Shown here: positions 11,715-52,955 of the stretch, one piece after another | Layout of the letters: every line of letters starts with the position of its first letter | How positions within the stretch are numbered: position 1 is the stretch's first letter | Source: a phage | Length of the DNA: 64,000 nt | NCBI GenBank assembly: GCA_027468165.1 | Contig: GCA_027468165.1_3951.1 | Strand: one strand, 5' to 3' | The notes under the pieces: generated by a model | Databases searched by the model: none | Told to the model about the DNA's origin: nothing | The model's input: the letters and a program-made list of their open reading frames with translations, nothing else | Translations under genes and position numbers: made by a program

Positions 11715-11765
11715 AAAGTTGTTGACAAAGGACTTGACAAGGTGTAGGCTTATAAATACTTAGAA
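11715..11765 (+). promoter_or_regulatory. Putative promoter region at the minus-to-plus strand switch (tandem TTGACA boxes, motif ACTTGACAAGGTG)
   Basis: AAAAAAGTTGTTGACAAAGGACTTGACAAGGTGTAGGCTTATAAAT; the -10 element is ambiguous. Confidence 0.35.
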
Positions 11766-12243: not shown

Positions 12244-12250
12244 TTTTAAA

Positions 12251-15157: not shown

Positions 15158-15192
15158 AAGTTGTTGACATTGATATGTGACCACTTTATAGT
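15158..15192 (+). promoter_or_regulatory. Putative internal promoter: A-tract, TTGACA 15164-15169, 17 bp, TATAGT 15187-15192
   Basis: Near-consensus sigma70 elements. Confidence 0.5.
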
Positions 15193-28428: not shown

Positions 28429-29781
28429 ATGTGGAATCCAATTGTTAATGTAGATATTACATTGAACACCGCAGGAACTACAAGAGAAGGTTTTGGGCTA
28501 CCACTATTTTTAGCTTCAACAGATAACTTTGAAGAAAGAGTGCGTGGTTACACTTCCTTAACTGAAGTTGCTGAAGATTTCGATGAGAAGTCTGCTGCAT
28601 ATAAGGCTGCTAAACAACTTTGGAGTCAAACTCCTAAAGTAACTCAGCTTTATATTGGTAGACGTGCTATGCAGTACACTGTATCAATTCCTGATGCCGT
28701 TACCGAAAGTACAGACTATTCTTTAACTGTAGCTGCTGGCGGTGGAATTTCTCAACCATATCAGTATACAGCAAAAAGCTCAGACACTGCTGAAGTAGTG
28801 TTGCAACAGTTTAAAACACAGATTGAAGCTGACCCAACAATCAAAGATAAGGTTTCTGTGAACGTAACTGGTAGTGGTTCTTCTACCACAATGGTTATTA
28901 CCAAAGCTGGTGATAATGATTTTGTGAAAGTAACAACTACAGCACAAACAGTGTCAATTGCAAGTACAACTGCTGATACAGCGTCAACTGCTCTGGCAGC
29001 CATTGAAGCTTATTCTACTGACTGGTATTTCATTGCAGCAGAAGACAGAACTCAACAGTTTGTCTTAGCAATGGCTTCTGAGATTCAGGCTCGCAAGAAA
29101 ATCTTCTTCACTGCTAACTCTGATGTAGCAGCACTGCAAGGCACAGAATTAAACAGTGCAAATGATGTTCCAGCACAGCTTGCTAAGAACATGTACACCC
29201 GTACAGTTTGCTTGTGGCATCACACAGCAGCAGAAGACTATCCAGAGATGGCATACATTGCTTATGGTGCTCCATATGATGCAGGTTCAATTGCTTGGGG
29301 TAACGCACAGTTAACTGGCGTAGCTGCTTCTCTACAACCATCTAATCAGAGACCTCTGACAAGTATTCAGAAGTCAGCTTTAGATGCACGTCACTGTAAC
29401 TTTATTGACCTTGATGGTGGTGTTCCAGTGGTTCGTAGAGGGATTACTTCTGGTGGGGAATGGATTGATATCATCCGTGGTGTTGACTGGTTAGAATCAG
29501 ACCTGAAAACTTCTCTGAGAGACTTGCTAATTAACCAGAAGGGTGGTAAGATTACTTATGATGATACTGGTATTACCCGTATTCGTCAAGTCATTGAAAC
29601 CTCTCTACAAAGAGCAGTCAACAGAAACTTCCTGTCATCTTACACAGTTAATGTTCCTAAAGCCTCTCAAGTTGCTTTAGCAGACAAGAAAGCTCGTATC
29701 CTGAAAGATGTTACCTTCGCAGGTATCTTAGCAGGGGCTATCTTGGATGTTGACTTGAAAGGTACAGTGGCTTACGAATAA
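28429..29781 (+). CDS. Tail sheath protein (putative)
   Basis: 450-aa ORF followed by a 148-aa ORF, chaperone pair and tape measure, the conserved contractile-tail gene order. Confidence 0.55.
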   Translation: MWNPIVNVDITLNTAGTTREGFGLPLFLASTDNFEERVRGYTSLTEVAEDFDEKSAAYKAAKQLWSQTPKVTQLYIGRRAMQYTVSIPDAVTESTDYSLTVAAGGGISQPYQYTAKSSDTAEVVLQQFKTQIEADPTIKDKVSVNVTGSGSSTTMVITKAGDNDFVKVTTTAQTVSIASTTADTASTALAAIEAYSTDWYFIAAEDRTQQFVLAMASEIQARKKIFFTANSDVAALQGTELNSANDVPAQLAKNMYTRTVCLWHHTAAEDYPEMAYIAYGAPYDAGSIAWGNAQLTGVAASLQPSNQRPLTSIQKSALDARHCNFIDLDGGVPVVRRGITSGGEWIDIIRGVDWLESDLKTSLRDLLINQKGGKITYDDTGITRIRQVIETSLQRAVNRNFLSSYTVNVPKASQVALADKKARILKDVTFAGILAGAILDVDLKGTVAYE

Positions 29782-38990: not shown

Positions 38991-40166
38991 ATGGCAGTAG
39001 GTGAAATTCAAATTAGTGCCTTGCCACAAGCGGCCTTACCAATTGATTTGAGTGATATCTTCCATCTTAAGCAAGGTGTTGAGGATAAAAGATGTACGCT
39101 TGAACAATTGTTAGCACCTCACGCATCTTTGAGGAATAACCCTCATGGTGTAACTAAATCACAAGTTGGTCTTGATAATGTTATTAACTCTCTACAATTA
39201 GTTGCAGCTAATAACTTGTCAGACATTGTGAATGTTGCTGAGGCAAGAGCGAATCTGCAAATTATGTCTTCAGATGAAGTGAACAGTTTAATTAAGAGAC
39301 ATATCGACGACAAAAGCAACCCACACAATACAACTAAAGCACAGGTTGGGTTAAGTAATGTTCAGAACTGGACAACATCAAACCTGTACAATGAAGATGC
39401 TGATAAGTATGCTACCGCGAGAGCAGTGAATAATTTATACAAAGCTATCCAAGCATCATATCCAGTAGGGACTATTCATCTATCTGTTAACTCTACTAAT
39501 CCATCTACTTACTTGCTTTGTGGGGGTACTTGGGAGTTAGTATCTAAAGGTAAGGCACTAGTTGGTTATGATACAGATTCTAGACCTGTTGGTTCAACGT
39601 TTGGTTCTCAGACTGTAGCATTAACAAATAATAATTTACCGGCGCACACCCACTCTATCTATTTAACAGGTGGTGGCCATACACACTCTGCAAGTGTATC
39701 TATCTCCAGTTTTGATTATGGTTCAAGAAGTACATCAACTTTCGATTATGGTACGAAGGCAACCGATGGTGCTGGTGCTCACACTCACACTTTTAGTGGC
39801 ACGACAAGTAATGCTGGTAACCACAACCATAGAGTACCACTGAGAGGTAATGATAGGAGTGGGTGGAATGCTATTACCGCGTCTGCTGATGCTGGGGTTG
39901 GTAACGCTTCGTATACTGATTTAGCAGGTGCTCACACCCATAGCTTCTCAGGCACAACTGCATCATCTGGTGCTCATAGCCATACTGTTGCAATTGGTGC
40001 TCATAGCCACACTGTTAGTATCGGTTCACACAGTCATACTGGCACTGTTACTGTTTCTAGCTCAGAGCATACGCACTCAGGCACATCTGGCTCTGTTGGT
40101 GGTGGTCAGGCTTTCAGTGTTGAGCAGCCATCTTTTGTAGTATATGTATGGCAGAGAACAGCTTAG
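38991..40166 (+). CDS. Tail fibre protein with His-rich (HxH) C-terminal module
   Basis: Repeated GAHTHS/HSHTV motifs; C-terminus ...AFSVEQPSFVVYVWQRTA paralogous to the end of the next gene. Confidence 0.65.
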   Translation: MAVGEIQISALPQAALPIDLSDIFHLKQGVEDKRCTLEQLLAPHASLRNNPHGVTKSQVGLDNVINSLQLVAANNLSDIVNVAEARANLQIMSSDEVNSLIKRHIDDKSNPHNTTKAQVGLSNVQNWTTSNLYNEDADKYATARAVNNLYKAIQASYPVGTIHLSVNSTNPSTYLLCGGTWELVSKGKALVGYDTDSRPVGSTFGSQTVALTNNNLPAHTHSIYLTGGGHTHSASVSISSFDYGSRSTSTFDYGTKATDGAGAHTHTFSGTTSNAGNHNHRVPLRGNDRSGWNAITASADAGVGNASYTDLAGAHTHSFSGTTASSGAHSHTVAIGAHSHTVSIGSHSHTGTVTVSSSEHTHSGTSGSVGGGQAFSVEQPSFVVYVWQRTA

Positions 40167-40176
40167 TTTCTTTACA

Positions 40177-40199
40177 GGGGCTTTATAGCCCCTTTTAAG
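40177..40199 (+). terminator. Intrinsic terminator (GGGGCT-TTATA-GCCCC followed by TTTTAAG)
   Basis: Read directly. Confidence 0.7.
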
Positions 40200-40212
40200 A
40201 GGAAAATTTATA

Positions 40213-42744
40213 ATGGCAGATTACAAATTGAGTCAATTAAACTCAATCGACACAATCCGTTCAGATGACCTTCTTCATGTCAGAGTTAAAAAGAGACCTG
40301 AAATGCTGGGTGATGAAGACCGTCGAATGACCTATCAAGACTTTTTAGCATCTTTTAAGCTTGAAAGATTTGTTCAGATTGCTGGTAGTAATATGACAGG
40401 TGACTTAGGGATTGTTAAGTTACTTTATGGTGGTAAGGCAGTCTTTGACCCAACAGGCTCTTCTGAGATTACTATTGGGGATGTTTTAAAGACTTTTAAA
40501 ATCAACGCAAGCGGCCTTAAACTAACTATTGCAGATGCTTCAAGGTCGGCAACTGTTTATCATACTCTGAATAAGCCAAGTCCTAATGAACTTGGGATGA
40601 GAACTAATGAAGAGAATGATGCAAGATATGCAAGGCTTGCTATTACAAACACATTCTCTGGAACTCAGAACATTCAAGGTGATGCTAACTTACTTCGCCT
40701 TAGAAACCAAAATGCAAACAAAGCACAATATATTGAAGGTGTAAACCTAGATGGTTCGGCTAGATGGTGGGTTGGTATTGGTAGTAATGGCTCTGACGAA
40801 GTAAAGCTGTACAATAACAAATACAACACAGCAGTGATTGTTGCAAACAATATCTCTGTGAGTAGGTCTTTAGCAATCACTGGTCAAGTTCAACCATCAG
40901 ATTTCTCTAACTTAGATGCTAGATACTTTACTCAGACAGTTGCTAATCAGAGATTTGCACAGTTAGCTGCTAATAACAATTTCACTGGTACTAACACTTT
41001 TAGCAGAAATCTAACTATCATTAGTGACAGTGCTGCTTTAAGGTTGAAAAATGCAACATCTAGTTCCCTATTTATTCAGGGAGTTAACTCTCAGAATGCC
41101 AACAGATGGTATGTAGGGAACGGTGATAACACCGCCTCTGTGTTACTACACAACTATGTATACAATTCAAATATTAGGCTCGATAATGGATATATCTCAG
41201 TCAACCAGAATTTCAGAATCACTGGTCAAGTTCAACCTTCTGATTGGACTAACATCGACTCTAGATACATTCCGGTAGGAACTTTGAGTAATCTTGCTAA
41301 ACTAAGTGATGCAAACACTTTCAGGTCTTCACAAGTAATTCTCAAAGATGAACTATCGTTACAGCTAAGAAACACTGTTCAGGATAAGCCACTATACCTT
41401 GCTGGTTATAACGCTGATAATGTGAGAAGGTGGTTCATCGGGAATGGGGAGCCAGCAGACCCAACTAAACTCATTATTTACAATGATAGGACTGGTACTG
41501 CTATTTTCATGCAAGATGACTTCTTGCTGAACAAAACAGTCAGAATTGCTGGTCAAGTACAACCTTCTGATTGGACTAACATTGATGGTCGATACTATAA
41601 CAAGTCATCAGCAGATAATAGGTATCTAAGAGTAAGAAGCACTGGATTTAACACCAGCGGTGTGGATAAATGGGCTAAGATTGCAACTGTCACCATGCCA
41701 CAAACAACATCAACAGCAGTAATCGAGTTGTTTGGTGGGGCTGGGTTCAACTTTGGTGCATATGACCAAGCCTGTAAAACAGAAATTGTTCTTAGAACAG
41801 GTAATAACAACCCAAAAGGATTAAATGTTGTTGCATGGAAAAACTCACCAAATGGTGTTGTGACGGAAATTGGGTATGTTAACACATCTGGCGATAATTA
41901 TGACATCTATTGCAAAGCTACTCGTTATCAAAATGCTACGACAGCTAGGGTTCAGTCATCAGATAATGCAACAGTACAACTGTTTGCAACCCCAGAGACA
42001 TACGATAATGCTCCAGATGACTATGTTGCTGGGACAATTGCTTATTATTATACTAGTCTCTTGAAACCAACCCCTTCAGATATTGGTGCATACACTAAAG
42101 GAGAAACTGACCAGAAGATTGCACAGGCAATTAGTGACTCTACAGACCTGAATAAAATCTACCCAGTTGGTATTGTAACGTGGTTTAACAGTAATGTTGA
42201 CCCTAACACAGCGTTGCCTGGGTTAACTTGGACGTATCTGAACAATGGTGTTGGTAGAACTATCAGAATCGCAGCAGCAAATGGTTCAGATGTTGCTACA
42301 ACTGGTGGTTCAGATTCTGTAACGTTATCTGTTGGTAACTTACCTTCACACACGCATAGTTTCTCTGCTACCACGTCGTCGTTTGATTACGGCACTAAAA
42401 CCACGAATAACACCGGGGCGCATACGCACAGTGTGAGCGGTACAGCCGCAAGTGCCGGAAACCATACTCATAGTGTCAAAGGCGCATCAGCAGAAAGACG
42501 GTACACATCAAGTGGGTCAACAAATGAGGTAGTGGCTGCGGTCAATATGAATACAAGTGCTGCAGGAGCGCACACTCATAGTGTCAGCGGCACAGCTGCA
42601 TCTGCAGGTGCTCACGCACATACTGTCGGTATTGGTGCTCACACCCATACAGTTAGTGGTAACACTGGTGGTACAGGTTCTGGTTCAGCATTTAGTGTTA
42701 CTAACCAGTTCTACAAGTTGATGGCTTGGGTAAGAACTGCTTAA
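40213..42744 (+). CDS. Long tail fibre protein (843 aa) with three internal repeats and His-rich C-terminal module
   Basis: Repeats ITGQVQPSD(F/W)(S/T)N(L/I)D(A/S/G)RY; C-terminal HxH module shared with 38991-40166. Confidence 0.7.
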   Translation: MADYKLSQLNSIDTIRSDDLLHVRVKKRPEMLGDEDRRMTYQDFLASFKLERFVQIAGSNMTGDLGIVKLLYGGKAVFDPTGSSEITIGDVLKTFKINASGLKLTIADASRSATVYHTLNKPSPNELGMRTNEENDARYARLAITNTFSGTQNIQGDANLLRLRNQNANKAQYIEGVNLDGSARWWVGIGSNGSDEVKLYNNKYNTAVIVANNISVSRSLAITGQVQPSDFSNLDARYFTQTVANQRFAQLAANNNFTGTNTFSRNLTIISDSAALRLKNATSSSLFIQGVNSQNANRWYVGNGDNTASVLLHNYVYNSNIRLDNGYISVNQNFRITGQVQPSDWTNIDSRYIPVGTLSNLAKLSDANTFRSSQVILKDELSLQLRNTVQDKPLYLAGYNADNVRRWFIGNGEPADPTKLIIYNDRTGTAIFMQDDFLLNKTVRIAGQVQPSDWTNIDGRYYNKSSADNRYLRVRSTGFNTSGVDKWAKIATVTMPQTTSTAVIELFGGAGFNFGAYDQACKTEIVLRTGNNNPKGLNVVAWKNSPNGVVTEIGYVNTSGDNYDIYCKATRYQNATTARVQSSDNATVQLFATPETYDNAPDDYVAGTIAYYYTSLLKPTPSDIGAYTKGETDQKIAQAISDSTDLNKIYPVGIVTWFNSNVDPNTALPGLTWTYLNNGVGRTIRIAAANGSDVATTGGSDSVTLSVGNLPSHTHSFSATTSSFDYGTKTTNNTGAHTHSVSGTAASAGNHTHSVKGASAERRYTSSGSTNEVVAAVNMNTSAAGAHTHSVSGTAASAGAHAHTVGIGAHTHTVSGNTGGTGSGSAFSVTNQFYKLMAWVRTA

Positions 42745-42822: not shown

Positions 42823-43020
42823 ATGCCTACAATCCTAGCAATTCTTCTAAAAAATCTAGGTAGCTTCTTCTGGAAACTTATTTTATCCCTTCTAAGTGAA
42901 TACATGATTGAGAAAGTGTTCTTTAGGCTTGCAAGATACCTTGCGAGTAAAACAGACACACCTATTGATGATGAGTTCGTAGATAACTTAGAAAAAGCTT
43001 TTAAGGGGGAGAATAAATGA
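42823..43020 (+). CDS. Small membrane protein, holin-like (65 aa)
   Basis: N-terminal hydrophobic helix, charged C-terminus; call is tentative. Confidence 0.4.
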   Translation: MPTILAILLKNLGSFFWKLILSLLSEYMIEKVFFRLARYLASKTDTPIDDEFVDNLEKAFKGENK

Positions 43021-43388
43021 AGTGGCTAGAGGAAGCTTTTAAAAATAATATTGGTGCAATTGTAGTTGGTATTTTTAGTGTTATCGGAATGTATACCACG
43101 ATGCAAGTTTCAAGTGGTAAACAAGAAGTGTCTGTCTCAACAAAGTTACAACAGTTGGATAATTACACAAGTAGTAACTATTCAGCTATTCGTGATTTAC
43201 AGTCTGACATGAGACTTATTCAGTTAGGGATGGAGAACCAGAAAGTTCAGTTAGAGAATGTTAAGGGTGAGAACGCAAAACTTACCAAAACTCTTGATAA
43301 ATTCTCTGACAGTGTGAATAATCTGGCCCAATCAGTATCAGCCCTCCAAGCTATTACTGAGAAGAACACAAAGAATACTGAAAAGTAA
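43017..43388 (+). CDS. Membrane-anchored coiled-coil protein (123 aa; spanin-like or lysis accessory)
   Basis: N-terminal TM (IGAIVVGIFSVIGMY) then heptad-like region. Confidence 0.4.
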   Translation: MKWLEEAFKNNIGAIVVGIFSVIGMYTTMQVSSGKQEVSVSTKLQQLDNYTSSNYSAIRDLQSDMRLIQLGMENQKVQLENVKGENAKLTKTLDKFSDSVNNLAQSVSALQAITEKNTKNTEK

Positions 43389-46018: not shown

Positions 46019-46348
46019 TTAATCTGCCAACCTTAAATTGAAGTTAACACCAAATTTTTCACATACTCCCAACATAAACTCAAGGGAGACATTGCCAGTG
46101 AGATTGATTATGTTGGATACACGAGCCTGAGAGATACCACAAATTTTAGCAACTTGCTCTTGAGAAAGACCTCTGGATTTAATCTCTCTCTTAAAACGAT
46201 GTGCAACGAAATCTCTCATTTCGTCTACATCCATTGGACAAATATAACTCCCCATTTCAGCCTCTCTGTCAGCCTCCCAATCATCTTGTGGAGCATAAGG
46301 GTCAAAAACCTCATTCATCTTTCTTCTTCCGTTTGCGTGAAGTGTCAA
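46019..46348 (-). CDS. Helix-turn-helix (XRE-like) DNA-binding protein
   Basis: LSQEQVAKICGISQARVSNI matches the classic HTH pattern. Confidence 0.6.
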   Translation of the reverse strand: MTLHANGRRKMNEVFDPYAPQDDWEADREAEMGSYICPMDVDEMRDFVAHRFKREIKSRGLSQEQVAKICGISQARVSNIINLTGNVSLEFMLGVCEKFGVNFNLRLAD

Positions 46349-46523
46349 TCAATGAATCTATGTTTGTAGCTCTAACCTTTTCACGTTCATCGTTAAGATA
46401 ATCGTCAAGAGCCTTTTCAATCTGTGAATCATCTTGACAGATAACTGTAAAGACTGTAAAGCCGTCTGTATCATCAATTATCTTACCATAACCGCTTCTG
46501 GGATGTAACTTTTTAAGAGCCAT
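46311..46523 (-). CDS. Hypothetical protein (70 aa)
   Basis: ORF track; overlaps neighbour by 38 nt, start uncertain. Confidence 0.4.
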   Translation of the reverse strand: MALKKLHPRSGYGKIIDDTDGFTVFTVICQDDSQIEKALDDYLNDEREKVRATNIDSLIDTSRKRKKKDE

Positions 46524-46524
46524 A

Positions 46525-46908
46525 TCAAATACCTGTGCAGCTTCTGTTTTCTAAGAAATACTCAACACCATACATAGCTTTTTGCATCAAATCTTCTTTA
46601 AACTGGATACGATGATTAAGCATAGCCTGTACATCAATATCATCATGGTGCTTCTCTTTAATATTTGCAGATTGCAGGAAATACTCTGCAAGAACACGAT
46701 ACTGATAGTCAGTTACCTTATCAGTCATCTCTGTTAAAGACTCTTCAGAGATTGGTTTAAGTAACTCACCATTAGCCAGAGCAACACCTTTAACAATCTG
46801 GCAAGTGTCTTCTGGAACACCTGATAAGTCCACATTTGGGAGTTCTGTTGCATTGACTGGTAAATTCATTGCCATAACCATTGCAGCAGCTAATAAAATC
46901 TTTTTCAT
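46525..46908 (-). CDS. Secreted/periplasmic protein with cleavable signal peptide (127 aa)
   Basis: N-terminus MKKILLAAAMVMAMNLPVNA then TELP. Confidence 0.55.
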   Translation of the reverse strand: MKKILLAAAMVMAMNLPVNATELPNVDLSGVPEDTCQIVKGVALANGELLKPISEESLTEMTDKVTDYQYRVLAEYFLQSANIKEKHHDDIDVQAMLNHRIQFKEDLMQKAMYGVEYFLENRSCTGI

Positions 46909-47173
46909 AATGACCTCAAAGTTATATTAAATTTTGTATTACATCGAGTATAAAAATAAGCTATAACACCTGACTTGTCAACAGATTTTATAGCTTATTT
47001 GGCAGATTTTTATAAGGCTACTACCATCCTTCCATACCAAACCCTACCTTACCAAACCATACAATACTGAACCTCACTTAAAACCCTCTTAGAAGACTCT
47101 TAAGTGATGCTGGTGAGTACCCGTTGGTTTATGCTGCTCAGTATACTCACCAAATTTTCTATGTCAACAACTT

Positions 47174-48277
47174 TTATTCATAATCTCGTATAACGAGACC
47201 AACAGGGAACTGTAAAGAACCCTTACGAGTCATCTTCTGGAACTGAACCGTTAAAGGCTTCCCGATAAACTCTTCAGGATGTTCAGCAAGATACTGTTTT
47301 TTCTCATGAGTAGTCTTCCATGAGACATCTACAAAGACGTTAGGGAGAGTCTCTACAACAAACTTGCCATGACCACGCTTATCAGTCTTTACACCAGTTA
47401 CTTTAAACTCTTCAGTGTGCATCTTCTTGTGCTTAATCAAGAAGTATGAACGGTGACAACACTCATAGAAGGAGTATTCAGAAATTGAACGGTACATTGC
47501 ACCTTCAAACTTAGCTTCAACCCATTTATCATGAGCTTCATCAAACTCTTCCCAAGAATTTACACGACGAGATTTAACAGGAACAACTTTACAGCCATCT
47601 CTAAAGTCATTCAATGGTGAAGTCTCAATAATATCTCTACGCTCAGGCCACGTCTTAGTGCTGTCACAGATATCATACCAGTAAAACTTGAGCAGGTGTC
47701 TGTCAGGATTGTCTTCATTTTTAATCATAGAGACAATATCTTCTAAGTCCCACCCATGAGCATAAATCTCTCCATCAAATTCATCAACATCTTTGTGGAG
47801 CCTTAGCATTGCCATAATGTCAGGTATTAGTTCAGTAGGGATTTTGTAAACAGTATTCTCACGAGAGTATGCTGTAAATACACTGCCAATACTCAAGTGC
47901 CTTGAAATCCTACAACGTACACCATCCAGTTTTGGTTGAGCATCAGCAGGGAATTTCAAATACTTTGCATGACTAACCTTTGCAGCATCATGAGCAAGCT
48001 GAACACCTACCTTTTCAGTATTCTGTGCAGACTCTTTTGTGTAAGCATAACCTTTGCGGTCAACTTGCTTTTTATACTTAGCAGAAACTTCAAAGAGAGC
48101 TTGCTGTTCAGCGTTACGCTCATTCTTTTTACCGATGTTTTTAGGTTCTGCTGTATACTCTTCAAACATCATCTTGCCATTTTCTTTACCGTAGGTTGTA
48201 ATAACTTTGTCACCTACAGCAACGCATGACCAGACATTGAAAGAGCCATCTTTATTTTGTTTGTACAGAATTGTCAT
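47174..48277 (-). CDS. ATP-dependent DNA ligase (T7-type, putative)
   Basis: Nucleotidyltransferase motif I KxDGxR (PKLDGVRC), motif III-like FDGEIY; start trimmed to ATG with SD GAGG at 48275-48277. Confidence 0.7.
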   Translation of the reverse strand: MTILYKQNKDGSFNVWSCVAVGDKVITTYGKENGKMMFEEYTAEPKNIGKKNERNAEQQALFEVSAKYKKQVDRKGYAYTKESAQNTEKVGVQLAHDAAKVSHAKYLKFPADAQPKLDGVRCRISRHLSIGSVFTAYSRENTVYKIPTELIPDIMAMLRLHKDVDEFDGEIYAHGWDLEDIVSMIKNEDNPDRHLLKFYWYDICDSTKTWPERRDIIETSPLNDFRDGCKVVPVKSRRVNSWEEFDEAHDKWVEAKFEGAMYRSISEYSFYECCHRSYFLIKHKKMHTEEFKVTGVKTDKRGHGKFVVETLPNVFVDVSWKTTHEKKQYLAEHPEEFIGKPLTVQFQKMTRKGSLQFPVGLVIRDYE

Positions 48278-48470
48278 TTTTAACCTCTGAGTGATACCAA
48301 GTGTAACAAGCATTACATGCGTAAAGCTCTAAGTCATTTTTATCTGGTTTATGGAAACAGTTTGACCCACAACGACACCGGAATAGCTTACCATCAACAC
48401 GAAGAATGAATGTTTCAAGCTCACCATCTTCTGTAAGAACTGCGTTCTTAAATTTATCTTCTACAGTCAT
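48252..48470 (-). CDS. Small Cys-rich (zinc-binding) protein (72 aa)
   Basis: CRCGSNC ... CNAC. Confidence 0.45.
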   Translation of the reverse strand: MTVEDKFKNAVLTEDGELETFILRVDGKLFRCRCGSNCFHKPDKNDLELYACNACYTWYHSEVKNDNSVQTK

Positions 48471-48521
48471 TTTCTCTTACCACCAATTTCTACGTCAATA
48501 ACTTGAACATCACCAGCAACA

Positions 48522-48782
48522 TCACTCAATAACCGTAGTATGTGATTGACCGTTTTTACCATAGCTGTAAGATGTTGTTGTTTGAGAGTTTGGACATCTG
48601 ACAACAACAATGTCTCTGCTTATGGTATCACCATGTAACTTATAGACTTTGCAATCTTGCATCTCTGGTGGGAGGCTGTAAGAAGCATTTTTATCTTCAT
48701 AAGAAGGGTTGCAGCCAGATAGAAAAATAACACCAAGTGCAATTACTGCTTTCCACATAATACCTCCCCTATTACTGTTCAC
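48522..48782 (-). CDS. Small lipoprotein (lipobox LSGC)
   Basis: N-terminus ...MWKAVIALGVIFLSGC: basic n-region, hydrophobic core, lipobox cysteine. Confidence 0.55.
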   Translation of the reverse strand: MNSNRGGIMWKAVIALGVIFLSGCNPSYEDKNASYSLPPEMQDCKVYKLHGDTISRDIVVVRCPNSQTTTSYSYGKNGQSHTTVIE

Positions 48783-48944
48783 GATGTTCTACTTCTCTGT
48801 ACGTTCGTCGATAGATTATAATAAGCTGTGCTAACTCGTTGCTTTTCACATCTGAACGTAGCAGTTGCCAATCAAAACCTTTACCGACTCTTCCATACAA
48901 ACTAAATAATTTTACTTTGTGTTTCATTTTGGTGTCCCTAATAC

Positions 48945-49172
48945 TCAGAGGCCAATACTAATACGTTCACCCTTAAGGACTCCTGTACGGTCTCTTGCAA
49001 TCTTACCGTCAACAATAAGAATGTGCGCAGACTTTAAAGATTCACTATTAAAACCTTTTACGAACTTACTAGGCATCACCACAATAAGCATCTCTTGAAT
49101 CAACTCTGGAGTATAGCAGTTGTTGTGAAGTTGCTGAATAACGTCTGCAAGTGTCATTTTTGATGTCTCCAA
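48945..49172 (-). CDS. Hypothetical protein (75 aa)
   Basis: ORF track. Confidence 0.4.
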   Translation of the reverse strand: METSKMTLADVIQQLHNNCYTPELIQEMLIVVMPSKFVKGFNSESLKSAHILIVDGKIARDRTGVLKGERISIGL

Positions 49173-49424: not shown

Positions 49425-49979
49425 TCAGTGTACTTCAAGCCAATTTTTACCAACTTTACCAGTACCAGTTACAAGCGTTTCCTCCTTAAGCCCTAAATTT
49501 CTTGACGCTTGACCATACATCCAGTCAATTACTGCTTTAACATCCTGCGTCATGTCTTCTGGGCACTCCCAACTATTCTCATCGTGATATGCTAAAAGCA
49601 ATCTAGCGCCAATAGCTGGTTTTCGACCATTCAACTTTGTAAGACCCTCTTCACAAGTTCTTCTACAAGCAAGGTTGATGGCTTCATTCTGAACCTGACT
49701 TTCAGAACCCATAAGCAAATAATTCAATAACTTATGTGGAGATTTACACCACAACCAAGCTCCAGCAACCTTTACAAACCCTCCTTTAGAGATTGCGGCA
49801 GTCTTACCAAATACCTCTTCAAGAGCCTTCTTAGTAGCTTTGAAGTCTGCTTCTAAATTATCCAGCAGCTTCTTAATTTTAGGGAGACGTACAAAGTATG
49901 TTTGCTTAGTTAAAGCACCCTCCTCAGTTGTAGATGCTTTAATCGTCTTAGCAAATTTCTCATCGCCAGCCCCGAACAA
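49425..49979 (-). CDS. DNA polymerase (family A), C-terminal segment / exon 2 (motif B second half and motif C)
   Basis: Begins FGAGDEKFAK (second half of the T7 gene 5 / Klenow O-helix motif) and contains LLAYHDE (motif C); no ATG or SD at its 5' end. Confidence 0.7.
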   Translation of the reverse strand: MFGAGDEKFAKTIKASTTEEGALTKQTYFVRLPKIKKLLDNLEADFKATKKALEEVFGKTAAISKGGFVKVAGAWLWCKSPHKLLNYLLMGSESQVQNEAINLACRRTCEEGLTKLNGRKPAIGARLLLAYHDENSWECPEDMTQDVKAVIDWMYGQASRNLGLKEETLVTGTGKVGKNWLEVH

Positions 49980-50778
49980 TACATCTGGTCAATACACTCG
50001 CAAGGTGTACCAGTTCTCTTATGAACTTCTCCGCATTTCTACGGAGTGTCGGACTATATCACGTAGCAGTGATGCTACCGTTGCACTTGGGAATGGTCAT
50101 TAGCTTACCACCCTACTCTACTCAGTTCATACGTTAAGTATGCCTTTCGATAGTCTCTGAACGTTTCTCTGTTAGGAATCTCTATAGTTATGTTATTTAC
50201 TTAGGTAGTCAATTGCTCTTTGCATATTATCAACGCTATCTGCAAGCAACCCCAAAGCTCTGTTGCAATTGTGGCATAACATACCTCTTACCTTTCCGGT
50301 TTTATGGTCATGGTCAACAACAAGTTTAGCCTTGTGTCGTGAACCATTCATGATAAAACCTTCACCGCCACAAATTTGACATTTGTAATCACAGTCACGG
50401 AGTAGAGCTTCAACCTCTTCTCTTTCCAATCCATATGTTCTTAGGTAGTAATTCTTAACTCTACCTTTCTCACCGCAATGTGACGAACAATAAACTTGCC
50501 TTGCTGTTCTCGGCATGAACACCTTCTCACAACTAGGACATTTCTTAGTAAGAACCCTGTGTTCTGCCCTTCTGTCAAACTTTAATACACAACTTCTGCA
50601 CCGTTTCTGATTGTATTGGTATGGTTTAAACTCCGTACCACACTCAGTGCATAATCTCTCTTCGTAACCTGCCATTGTCTCTCTCCTTGTTTTAGGAGTC
50701 CTAACAGAGACTTCGCTGCTGATTACCATATCTTTACAGACTTAGGCTTCCAGCAATTCACAACGTTTTACATGCGCC
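49980..50778 (-). mobile_element. Intervening sequence (~0.8 kb) splitting the DNA polymerase inside motif B; carries an HNH endonuclease ORF (candidate group I intron)
   Basis: Polymerase motifs A and first half of B lie upstream, second half of B and motif C downstream; boundaries approximate. Confidence 0.55.
50193..50729 (-). CDS. HNH homing endonuclease
   Basis: HNH core DHDHKTGKVRGMLCHNCNRALG plus two N-terminal Cys4 zinc-finger-like clusters. Confidence 0.8.
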   Translation of the reverse strand: MVISSEVSVRTPKTRRETMAGYEERLCTECGTEFKPYQYNQKRCRSCVLKFDRRAEHRVLTKKCPSCEKVFMPRTARQVYCSSHCGEKGRVKNYYLRTYGLEREEVEALLRDCDYKCQICGGEGFIMNGSRHKAKLVVDHDHKTGKVRGMLCHNCNRALGLLADSVDNMQRAIDYLSK

Positions 50779-52955
50779 ACTGACGCATAAATGCCATTTT
50801 TGGCTTTCTTACGACCTTTACTAATTTCTTGAAGAAGACTTGCATCCTGTGTAGCTCGACATGTCAAGATGTCTTCCTCTTTATTAAGACTGAAGTAGAT
50901 ACTATTTAAAGTATGTGCATCAGTTCCTGAGTACACCACGTACAAGTCATTTTCCGAATCATAATGCAAATACTTGTCAATCTCTGGGTTTAGATACTGG
51001 TCAAAATGTTTGCAATAATATCTACCATCCTCTTGTTTGACAAACTCAACCTCTTCTTTACCCTCTGTCACTGCTTTGGTGAACTCTTTATCACCCATAA
51101 AGTTACACAGCAGTACAAGTTGCGCGCTATTCATATCTGCTGAAACAATATTAGTTCCTTCTTCACAAGTCCAAACTTCCCTCATAGGTGCTCCATAGAC
51201 AGCAGCACCAGACGGTACGTTTACAATACCATATTGTGTCATACGTCCAGTTGAAGTACCAAATACCATTGCACCAGCACTAAGGCGACCATCTGGACGA
51301 ATCTGGTTCAACCAACCTTTTTCATCATCCTTTGAGTTCTCAATAGTTCTGCGTCGGTGCATCAAAGTATAGTACTTAGCAATCTTCTGTCCAAGCTCAC
51401 CTTCAATCGTATCATAAGATGATTCAGTAAGTTTTGGTGAAGTCCTAATCAGACAAGGTTCAAGCAAATCTGTGTACTTCTTCACAGACCAGTTATGCTC
51501 AATGTACTGGACACCTTCGTGTTCAACATAGCTCAAACCACACCGTTCCACCATCTCATCCCACTTAGGATGCTTTGTAATCATCTTTTTGTTGTCTTTG
51601 AAGCGACAAACCTTAACAGGACGACCATCAGAGTCTTTCTTATAGTTCCAGTCATCTGGAATCCAACCAACTGATTTCAAGTAGTCTTTAACAACTGCTA
51701 CCTGAGTCATACGAGAAACTTCGAACTCAATTGGTGTATATGGTGCATCAATCAAACCTGTGTAGCGACTTGACTCAAGTTCAAAGTGGTTAACAACATG
51801 GCTGTTATAGTACTTCACAGTTTTAACTGTTTTTACTGGCTTCCAGTCTTTGCACTTCTTACCAATCTTTGCATTCAACTCATTGCAAATTGCACGAGCA
51901 TCCTTCATTGCTACAAAACCTTCCTTGTACTCTTCACCAGTTACGGAGTTGGTTGGTGTATAGCAATTCCGCTTTTCAATGTTAAAAATCTTTGTAGTTG
52001 GCTTACCAAATGGCTTGATTTCATATGTCTGCATCTCACCGTTACGTACCTGCTGACGATACTTTGTCTTAGGGTACTTGGTAATTCTCTTCAGTCCATC
52101 TGCATGGCCGAATGCTTCAACATACTCATTCCAAGCTTTTGCAAACTCTTCTCCAGTGACTTTGCCTTTGGTCTTAATAGTTGGAGGAAGATGTGGTTCA
52201 ACTTCTGAAGCAAGCTCATTAGTCAACTTGTCAAGTTCCTTTACATGGAACTCCATAAGCTCTTTATCAGCTTTCCAACCATTGATAGCTTGTTGACTCA
52301 TCCAGAAAGATGTTTCTTTAGCTCGCATGTAGGTTTCATAGGTGTCTACGCCACACTTCTTCAGCTTGAGATATTCATTATCCAGTGCACGTTTAGTTTT
52401 GGCGTTAATACGGATATCTTCTACAACACGAGTGAAGATTTCTGCATTCCACACACCCCAATGTTCAATCTCTGGTTTACGTACACCAACACGAGCACCC
52501 CATGCTGCCAAGCCATGAGCACCTTTATAGCCCTTTGGAGTTGGTCTATCCATCCACTGAACACGAGACTGGATAAGAGAATCCTGAAAGAAATTACTCC
52601 ACGGCTTACACTTTGGATTATCAAAGTTCCACAAATCAGGTGCAATGTGATTGAAAACCCACCAGTCATACCCTAAACCATTATGGATGCAAAGTCGTTT
52701 TGCCTTTAACGCAAACTCAATACCTTCACGCAAACCACCCTTAATGTACTTGGTATACTTGTGACCGAGGATAGGCTCATCTGTAAAGACCCATACAGGT
52801 GGCTCTTCATCGTCAGATTTATAGTCTGCGAAAGCCATTACGTGCACTTTAGTGAACTCAAGGAGTAAACCATCAGTTTCTGTATCACCAACTAAATGTA
52901 AGTTTTTAAAATCTACGTTTTCCATTTTTACTCCCTCTAAAATCATTAACCACAT
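50742..52955 (-). CDS. DNA polymerase (family A), N-terminal segment / exon 1 (exonuclease domain, motif A, first half of motif B)
   Basis: Motif A IVSADMNSAQL (Klenow LIVSADYSQIELR), then RKKAKNGIYASV (T7 RDNAKTFIYGFL); the frame runs on 11 codons to a stop. Confidence 0.85.
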   Translation of the reverse strand: MWLMILEGVKMENVDFKNLHLVGDTETDGLLLEFTKVHVMAFADYKSDDEEPPVWVFTDEPILGHKYTKYIKGGLREGIEFALKAKRLCIHNGLGYDWWVFNHIAPDLWNFDNPKCKPWSNFFQDSLIQSRVQWMDRPTPKGYKGAHGLAAWGARVGVRKPEIEHWGVWNAEIFTRVVEDIRINAKTKRALDNEYLKLKKCGVDTYETYMRAKETSFWMSQQAINGWKADKELMEFHVKELDKLTNELASEVEPHLPPTIKTKGKVTGEEFAKAWNEYVEAFGHADGLKRITKYPKTKYRQQVRNGEMQTYEIKPFGKPTTKIFNIEKRNCYTPTNSVTGEEYKEGFVAMKDARAICNELNAKIGKKCKDWKPVKTVKTVKYYNSHVVNHFELESSRYTGLIDAPYTPIEFEVSRMTQVAVVKDYLKSVGWIPDDWNYKKDSDGRPVKVCRFKDNKKMITKHPKWDEMVERCGLSYVEHEGVQYIEHNWSVKKYTDLLEPCLIRTSPKLTESSYDTIEGELGQKIAKYYTLMHRRRTIENSKDDEKGWLNQIRPDGRLSAGAMVFGTSTGRMTQYGIVNVPSGAAVYGAPMREVWTCEEGTNIVSADMNSAQLVLLCNFMGDKEFTKAVTEGKEEVEFVKQEDGRYYCKHFDQYLNPEIDKYLHYDSENDLYVVYSGTDAHTLNSIYFSLNKEEDILTCRATQDASLLQEISKGRKKAKNGIYASVAHVKRCELLEA

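Follow-up and report, generated by a model that had tools for sequence, protein, structure and literature searches.

The DNA analysed here is a stretch of 64,000 nucleotides from a phage (GenBank assembly GCA_027468165.1, contig GCA_027468165.1_3951.1), referred to as the window, which represents a Felixounavirus genome, i.e., that of a Felix O1-like virulent myovirus. An earlier note had placed two open reading frames (ORFs) for small exported proteins, at 48522-48782 and 46525-46908, in the replication block of this phage; both exist at these positions on the minus strand, in the block of genes for DNA polymerase, ligase and deoxythymidine monophosphate synthesis. Judging from their sequences, both genes very probably encode exported phage proteins, one a lipoprotein and the other a secreted protein, made from the replication-gene block. 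Compared with 260 phage records, nearly all of Felixounavirus or related Ounavirinae, the region 46300-49000 is 92-96% identical, with VpaE1, JohannRWettstein (Bas63), wV8 and Felix O1 among its relatives, and in all records both genes are annotated as “hypothetical protein”. The features that define them are as follows:

48522-48758, minus strand: lipoprotein gene, encoding a precursor of 78 amino acids (aa) from its ATG and a mature protein of 63 aa (PHROG 902 / Pfam DUF4884)
48763-48769, minus strand: Shine-Dalgarno sequence GGGGAGG, 4 nt upstream of the ATG at 48758; the upstream sequence ACAGTAATAGGGGAGGTATT is followed by the ATG
48711-48722, minus strand: lipobox Leu13-Ser14-Gly15-Cys16, in the PS51257 core IALGVIFLSGC
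46525-46908, minus strand: gene for a secreted protein of 127 aa (PHROG 4332, E 3e-67; unknown function)

The maximal lipoprotein ORF, 48522-48782, has a GTG start and comprises 86 aa. From the ATG at 48758, the protein begins with MWKAVIALGVIFLSG, followed by the cleavage site and then by CNPSYEDK…. Its signal is composed of Lys3, the hydrophobic core AVIALGVIF and the residues LSG ahead of Cys16, which is the predicted lipidated residue and the first of the mature protein (Cys24 when counted from the GTG), followed by Asn at +2 and Pro at +3. The PROSITE PS51257-type core and the G+LPP lipobox patterns both match, whichever start is used, in agreement with the lipoprotein signal originally described. 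Felix O1-type alleles (MNNKVKSCVKAMVALGVIFLAGC, with MNNKVKSCVKAMVALGVIFLAG before the Cys) have no ATG at that position, so that the GTG start is obligatory there and the longer coordinates are legitimate. Among the 1,363 combinations of ORF and start of at least 35 aa in the 64-kb window, the lipobox pattern was detected in the lipoprotein ORF and in one spurious TTG-initiated ORF only.

The 127-aa protein carries a predicted signal peptide at residues 1-20 (46849-46908), formed by an MKK n-region, an 11-residue core (ILLAAAMVMAM) and the residues NLPVNA ahead of TE, in which Val at -3 and Ala at -1 fit the -3/-1 rule; the mature protein of 107 aa is acidic and predicted to be all-helical. 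The cleavable signal peptide attributed to this ORF is further upheld by its Mooglevirus homologues, which share 33% identity and keep both the signal peptide (MKKLLVGIVALGMSFSAAA, …SFSAAA, then M) and the cysteines Cys36 and Cys124. Moreover, a crude signal-peptide filter was passed by four of the 165 ATG-initiated ORFs of at least 45 aa, and a core running from residue 4 was present only in the 127-aa protein and in the lipoprotein.

Substitution patterns across 18 Felixounavirus loci were then considered. The ratio of nonsynonymous to synonymous substitutions (dN/dS) of the lipoprotein is 0.074 in the mature part versus 0.78 in the signal peptide, and that of the 127-aa protein is 0.053 versus approximately 1.9, the substitution counts in the latter signal peptide being tiny; the neighbouring genes range from 0.03 to 0.19. 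Constrained mature parts next to relaxed signal peptides are the pattern expected of a cleaved signal peptide. In addition, both genes were found in all 25 related loci compared, and the 127-aa protein was found in 259 records, all of them Ounavirinae-type and bearing the same organism names as the DNA-level relatives of the region. Within the genus, lipoprotein identity is 60-97%, a greater variation than that of its neighbours.

Two further observations concern the lipoprotein gene and its alleles. Right after its last sense codon begins a 162-bp in-frame deletion (window 48467-48562, minus strand, junction at about 48522), located at a TGAxGTT microhomology, by which the stop codon was recreated. 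The deletion takes 54 codons of the downstream ORF (phrog_4427), which encodes 85 aa in Felix O1 and Bas63 as compared to a 31-aa remnant here; it is present in none of the 16 relatives measured, in which the spacing is 217-745 nt instead of 52 nt, and the ORF that it shortens appears to be dispensable. The other observation concerns Salmonella phage GE_vB_B3 (MG969406.1, an UNVERIFIED record of 109 kb), in which the lipoprotein gene, the ligase gene and their neighbours are broken by multiple frameshifts. These are likely sequence errors rather than signs of pseudogenes, in which case the 47% tblastn identity of this record to the lipoprotein is an artefact.

The lipoprotein matches phrog_902, a family of unknown function, over residues 1-76 (E 5.3e-17). 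Precomputed matches to PF16225, the accession labelled DUF4884, are found on 26 of 28 lipoprotein homologues, and a direct local Pfam-A scan of the lipoprotein gave no DUF4884 match; the label is therefore indirect, as it relies on the annotations of homologues. An exhaustive profile search retrieved 1,096 representatives of clusters at 50% identity at E ≤ 1e-3, and 507 at E ≤ 1e-10, mostly of 75-120 aa. A strict lipobox is present in 161 of the 172 family members inspected, while the other 11 have a relaxed lipobox or merely a long N-terminal extension, so that essentially the whole family carries this signal. The +2 residue varies (Glu, Asp, Asn, Ser or Gly), with Asp in 30 and Glu in 33 of the 161 strict-lipobox members. 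Positions C36, V52, V53, C55 and P56 are invariant, with a near-invariant VVRCPNSxT[ST]T core. The lipoprotein of the window has both this motif and the motif Y-x-LP…DC-x-[IV]Y of DUF4884/PHROG 902, and no feature sets it apart from the family.

Phages encoding family members include the Ounavirinae, phages of Acinetobacter, Cronobacter and Serratia (myoviruses in these three) and of Pectobacterium, the jumbo phages Serratia BF, Erwinia phages, Yersinia fHe-Yen9-03 and Escherichia WPEC5 and G17, approximately 295 Vibrio phage records of 114 kb, and the Aeromonas T4-like phages Aeh1 and phiAS5. The homologues are invariably encoded among genes for early functions, replication or recombination, and no conserved gene adjoining them was found in the 12 diverse loci compared. 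No copy of the VVRCPNS motif was found in 185,579 GTDB species genomes; DUF4884 also has chromosomal members in Bacteroides (BT_3183), and the family is hence not strictly phage-only. A search with P0046 for a cultured T1-like family member found none, and some metagenomic homologues are frameshifted (P0013, P0014). Subsets of DUF4884 (P0037, P0038, P0089 and P0101; P0041, P0045, P0046, P0057 and P0078) have conserved C-terminal extensions of the types …VIDGxxYxK and helical …LKKLTxEE(R/K)KxLG…, which suggests that these are optional add-on modules.

An AlphaFold2 model of the lipoprotein was obtained with a mean predicted local distance difference test score (pLDDT) of 67, and of about 80 over residues 21-60. 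It presents a five-strand beta domain in which C36 and C55 face each other at the base of the 37-42/50-54 hairpin, and a Cys36-Cys55 disulfide probably clamps this beta-hairpin. No PDB entry was matched in a fold search with the model, and BFVD returned only other uncharacterised phage lipoproteins. The model of the 127-aa protein is unreliable (pLDDT 39.6), hinting merely at an all-helical protein, and was kept out of the fold search. Searches of Pfam, NCBIfam and PDB sequences gave only signal-peptide-level or noise matches for both proteins; the 127-aa protein has no relative in Pfam or NCBIfam, and no PDB sequence match at E ≤ 10.

The 127-aa gene is the first after a 265-bp gap that contains two sigma-70-like sites, and is followed by further genes on the same strand:

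47140-47167, minus strand: distal promoter-like site TTGACA-16-TATACT (11 of 12 consensus positions), with the extended motif AAGTTGTTGACA, directly after the ligase stop codon
46953-46981, minus strand: proximal promoter-like site TTGACA-17-TATTTT (10 of 12), 45 nt upstream of the 127-aa gene start
46311-46523, minus strand: 70-aa ORF that follows the 127-aa gene and is predicted to share its transcription unit
46019-46318/46348, minus strand: Cro/C1-type helix-turn-helix (HTH) regulator, likewise predicted to be part of that unit (HTH_3, E 2.7e-10; phrog_1373, transcriptional regulator; synteny)

The proximal core, from the -35 hexamer to TATTTT, is identical in 18 of 18 Felixounavirus loci, and Mooglevirus relatives have the motif of the distal site, AAAGTTGTTGACA-N16-TATACT, directly upstream of the 127-aa gene. 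Early expression, which had been assumed in the earlier note, fits these conserved, near-consensus promoter sequences directly ahead of the gene, and the sites support early transcription of the 127-aa gene by the host polymerase, as far as promoter motifs can indicate it. Only three exact copies of the extended -35 motif AAGTTGTTGACA are present in the window, at 11716-11727 and 15158-15169 on the plus strand and at 47162-47173 on the minus strand; by analogy with relatives, those on the plus strand probably lie among the tRNA genes. One-mismatch copies lie at 12250 and 13843, and 31 sites with at most two mismatches were observed, as compared to 13.5 ± 4 expected; these sites look like a phage-specific class of strong early promoters. 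A literature search on Felixounavirus transcriptomics found nothing relevant.

The 265-bp gap (46909-47173) that separates the 127-aa gene from the ligase gene is also an insertion hot spot: in relatives its length varies from 85 to 2,135 bp, and it often holds extra ORFs. Its minus-strand RNA folds far better than shuffled sequence (z = -4.1). A 19-bp inverted repeat at 46954-47000 (89% complementary) holds the proximal -35 hexamer in its loop. It could serve as an operator to which the HTH regulator of this operon binds, or else act as a terminator or attenuator. The gap further contains a palindrome over the distal -10 (47111-47152) and a tandem CCTnCCnTACCAAAC repeat (47028-47057).

With regard to the wider locus, all genes from DNA polymerase (52955) to thymidylate synthase (43425) are on the minus strand, in the order polymerase, small ORFs, lipoprotein, 72-aa ORF, ATP-dependent ligase and 265-bp gap, and then 127-aa ORF, 70-aa ORF, HTH regulator, more ORFs, dihydrofolate reductase and thymidylate synthase. 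This order is kept in both Felixounavirus and Mooglevirus. The polymerase gene is split here into a 737-aa N-terminal ORF (50742-52955) and a 184-aa C-terminal ORF (49425-49979), separated by a 178-aa HNH endonuclease ORF (50193-50729), all on the minus strand, while relatives have a single polymerase ORF of approximately 906 aa. The split suggests an intron carrying a homing endonuclease, and a weak group I intron match at 50666-50755, which remains below the gathering score (RF00028, 24.8 bits, E 0.003), spans the junction. Just downstream of the tail-fibre genes lies a plus-strand ORF of 123 aa (43017-43388) that is listed as hypothetical in the records of relatives. With a transmembrane-like segment near its N-terminus (residues ~12-30) and a tail resembling a coiled coil, it encodes a candidate membrane or lysis protein.

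Based on these features, Sec would translocate the 78-aa precursor, and signal peptidase II would remove its signal after lipidation of Cys16, leaving a 63-aa mature lipoprotein that would form a small beta-sheet domain facing the periplasm. Lipoprotein sorting in Enterobacterales is governed by the Asp+2 Lol-avoidance rule, by which the Asn at +2 predicts that the lipoprotein is sorted to the outer membrane. The 127-aa protein would be cut after VNA20 and released to the periplasm, where it would be acidic, helical and bridged by a disulfide between Cys36 and Cys124. It may represent an Ounavirinae-specific early periplasmic factor acting in the same compartment as the lipoprotein; the analysis gave no support for a link between the two as joint workers.

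As to what such proteins may do, the near-invariant core of the lipoprotein is shared by phages with unrelated receptors, which points to a conserved periplasmic or envelope partner, and the variable +2 residue, often Asp or Glu, indicates that the target need not be an outer-membrane protein. In addition, among the lipoproteins of virulent coliphages, those that have been characterised and are not spanins (Llp, Cor and Rtp45) are exclusion factors (PMC9586334, PMC12685063), which favours a role in exclusion or protection. We therefore tentatively propose a receptor-independent, envelope-level exclusion or protection, as a plausible reading that may well prove wrong. The lipoprotein would bind a conserved component located in the periplasm or envelope, whether from the host or from incoming phages, and not the phage's own receptor, leaving the envelope of the infected cell refractory to, or protected from, secondary attack, i.e., post-adsorption exclusion in a broad sense. 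Several points weigh against this proposal. Homology ties neither protein to any function, and the lipoprotein fold found no counterpart beyond uncharacterised phage lipoproteins. The lipoprotein model is only moderately confident, and that of the 127-aa protein is unusable. Moreover, the presence of Asp or Glu at +2 in many family members means that membrane placement is not conserved, which weakens the case for a single outer-membrane target, and early expression is deduced from the promoter-like sites and the gene neighbourhood.

The main rival is that the exported proteins modulate host envelope physiology, lysis timing or an envelope-based defence rather than acting on other phages, for instance through peptidoglycan turnover, envelope stress signalling or the neutralisation of an envelope-located defence. 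We regard this as possible, if somewhat doubtful. The wide spread and conserved core of the lipoprotein suggest a conserved host target, the mixed inner- and outer-membrane sorting signals would fit a soluble or peptidoglycan-associated one, and the position of the 127-aa gene at the head of an operon with an HTH regulator, with its promoter in a palindrome, suggests regulated host-takeover expression. However, searches of Pfam, NCBIfam, PHROGs and PDB revealed no known lysozyme inhibitor, antiholin, spanin or anti-defence protein that resembles them, and the genes are neither in nor near the scattered lysis genes of relatives. This scattering of lysis genes around Felix O1-like genomes (PMC4319497) would also be compatible with the lipoprotein being an outer-membrane spanin of the Rz1 type, or a second one, acting in the final lysis step, and Rz1-type spanins share with it the small size and a periplasmic, cysteine-containing domain. 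This is nevertheless highly improbable. Rz1-type proteins have an overlapping or adjacent inner-membrane spanin (i-spanin) partner and a lysis context, whereas the lipoprotein has neither: its neighbours are soluble small ORFs, none of them i-spanin-like, no neighbour is conserved across the 12 family loci, and its homologues lie among replication genes. Its mature part is predicted to fold into a beta domain rather than to form an extended chain rich in proline. The spanin assignment was rejected, as the canonical pair is located elsewhere in relatives. Published notes on Felix O1-like phages list separate spanins, and in Escherichia phage vB_EcoM_E9 an overlapped pair lies at 78.0-78.8 kb, a region outside this window. 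The i-spanin of this pair is Rz-like, measures 115 aa and carries a transmembrane segment at its N-terminus; the ORF overlapping it encodes 89 aa and has a lipobox (MSG, then C). Within the E9 sequence, the pair is found at L004 28243-28753 (record 78042-78552), and the 89-aa outer-membrane spanin ORF (MKRLSQSFIMFVLLIIMSG, then C…, 28484-28753) is unannotated; besides the Rz-like i-spanin, the record lists just one other small ORF. Finally, the “hypothetical protein” labels and the few frameshifted metagenomic homologues might be taken to mean that one or both ORFs are chance or decaying sequences devoid of function. This is effectively refuted by the conservation data: the dN/dS of the mature parts (0.07 and 0.05), the strong Shine-Dalgarno sequence of the lipoprotein gene, the presence of both genes in every locus compared and of the 127-aa gene in 259 records, and cysteines that are invariant across distant homologues.

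The remaining alternative is the one put forward in the earlier note, in which the lipoprotein was likened to T5 Llp. According to it, the lipoprotein would bind the periplasmic face of the phage's own outer-membrane receptor and switch it off, thereby blocking superinfection and preventing the loss of progeny on cell debris. In size class and layout the resemblance is real, as Llp (77 aa) and T1 Cor (75 aa) also have a small precursor, a short lipoprotein signal, a mature domain of ~60 aa and two more cysteines. Llp, Rtp45 and Cor (of T1, phi80 and N15), all from siphophages, presumably point from the outer membrane into the periplasm, and sorting to the outer membrane is likewise predicted here from Asn+2. 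The lipoprotein is probably expressed before the late genes, and a preprint describes T5 Llp as made shortly after infection (bioRxiv 10.64898/2026.03.26.714494); the greater variability of the lipoprotein within the genus would fit as well. Still, masking of the phage's own receptor is unlikely. In hhalign comparisons, T5 Llp and T1 Cor align with the DUF4884 family profile over the signal peptide only, and with signal peptides removed the probability between the 169-sequence DUF4884 profile and the Cor/Llp alignment is 0.1%, on which grounds membership of the Llp/Cor family was rejected. The lipoprotein of the window has no match to phrog_1119 (Cor), for which one jumbo-phage homologue gave a weak match (E 0.0015). 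The cysteines lie near the start and the end of mature Llp and Cor, but at positions 36 and 55 here, and the model has no structural match in PDB. Moreover, T5 llp is divergent from oad and T1 cor lies just after the tail genes, so both adjoin receptor-binding tail genes, whereas the lipoprotein gene lies between the polymerase and ligase genes, approximately 5.8 kb from the fibre genes (38991-42744). In 15 Felixounavirus genomes, lipoprotein and long-tail-fibre alleles do not co-vary (Mantel rho 0.06, p 0.30; rho 0.07 against the C-terminal 450 aa of the fibre), and neither do the neighbouring genes; the test is crude, as 15 genomes are few and the true receptor-binding protein of these phages is not known. 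An initial rho of 0.50 was an artefact of the outgroup and of truncated fibres, and fell to 0.06 once these were removed. Felix O1-type phages are reported to depend on lipopolysaccharide and not on protein receptors (PMC8594841), as opposed to the FhuA or LptD receptors of the Llp/Cor/Rtp45 group. The same conserved core is also present in Vibrio, Aeromonas, Acinetobacter and jumbo phages. Overall, the observation of two exported proteins was correct, but the mechanism suggested for them is mostly unsupported.

Returning to receptor-independent exclusion, a further parallel may be Spackle of T4 (gp61.3), a helical, disulfide-bonded protein that acts in the periplasm and excludes incoming T-even phages by inhibiting their tail lysozyme. 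As a small, early-exported protein of a contractile-tail phage, it can be likened to the 127-aa protein, and the lipoprotein is possibly its functional analogue, by analogy only: for the 127-aa protein, no PDB-chain sequence matched at E ≤ 10, and its model is too poor for a fold comparison. Extended to the family, this would make the DUF4884 proteins widespread and so far unrecognised periplasmic “immunity” factors, mostly of contractile-tail phages, that are membrane-tethered and neutralise a conserved envelope-penetration step, e.g., by acting against the tail-tip lysozyme or puncturing device, as receptor-independent counterparts of Spackle in phages other than T-even ones. We consider this extension speculative and rather improbable.

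Felix O1-like phages serve in the diagnosis and biocontrol of Salmonella, and the behaviour of phages in cocktails is affected by factors for exclusion or envelope remodelling. Both genes studied here belong to catalogued families of unknown function, of which they are conserved but unexceptional members, and much of what is described is a routine, annotation-level observation. The wider interest lies in how large the DUF4884 lipoprotein family is and how widely it is spread among phages. It comprises more than 1,000 clusters at 50% identity, with members that stand alone in virulent phages infecting Enterobacterales, Vibrio, Aeromonas and Acinetobacter, and a function established for one of them would annotate hundreds of phage genomes.

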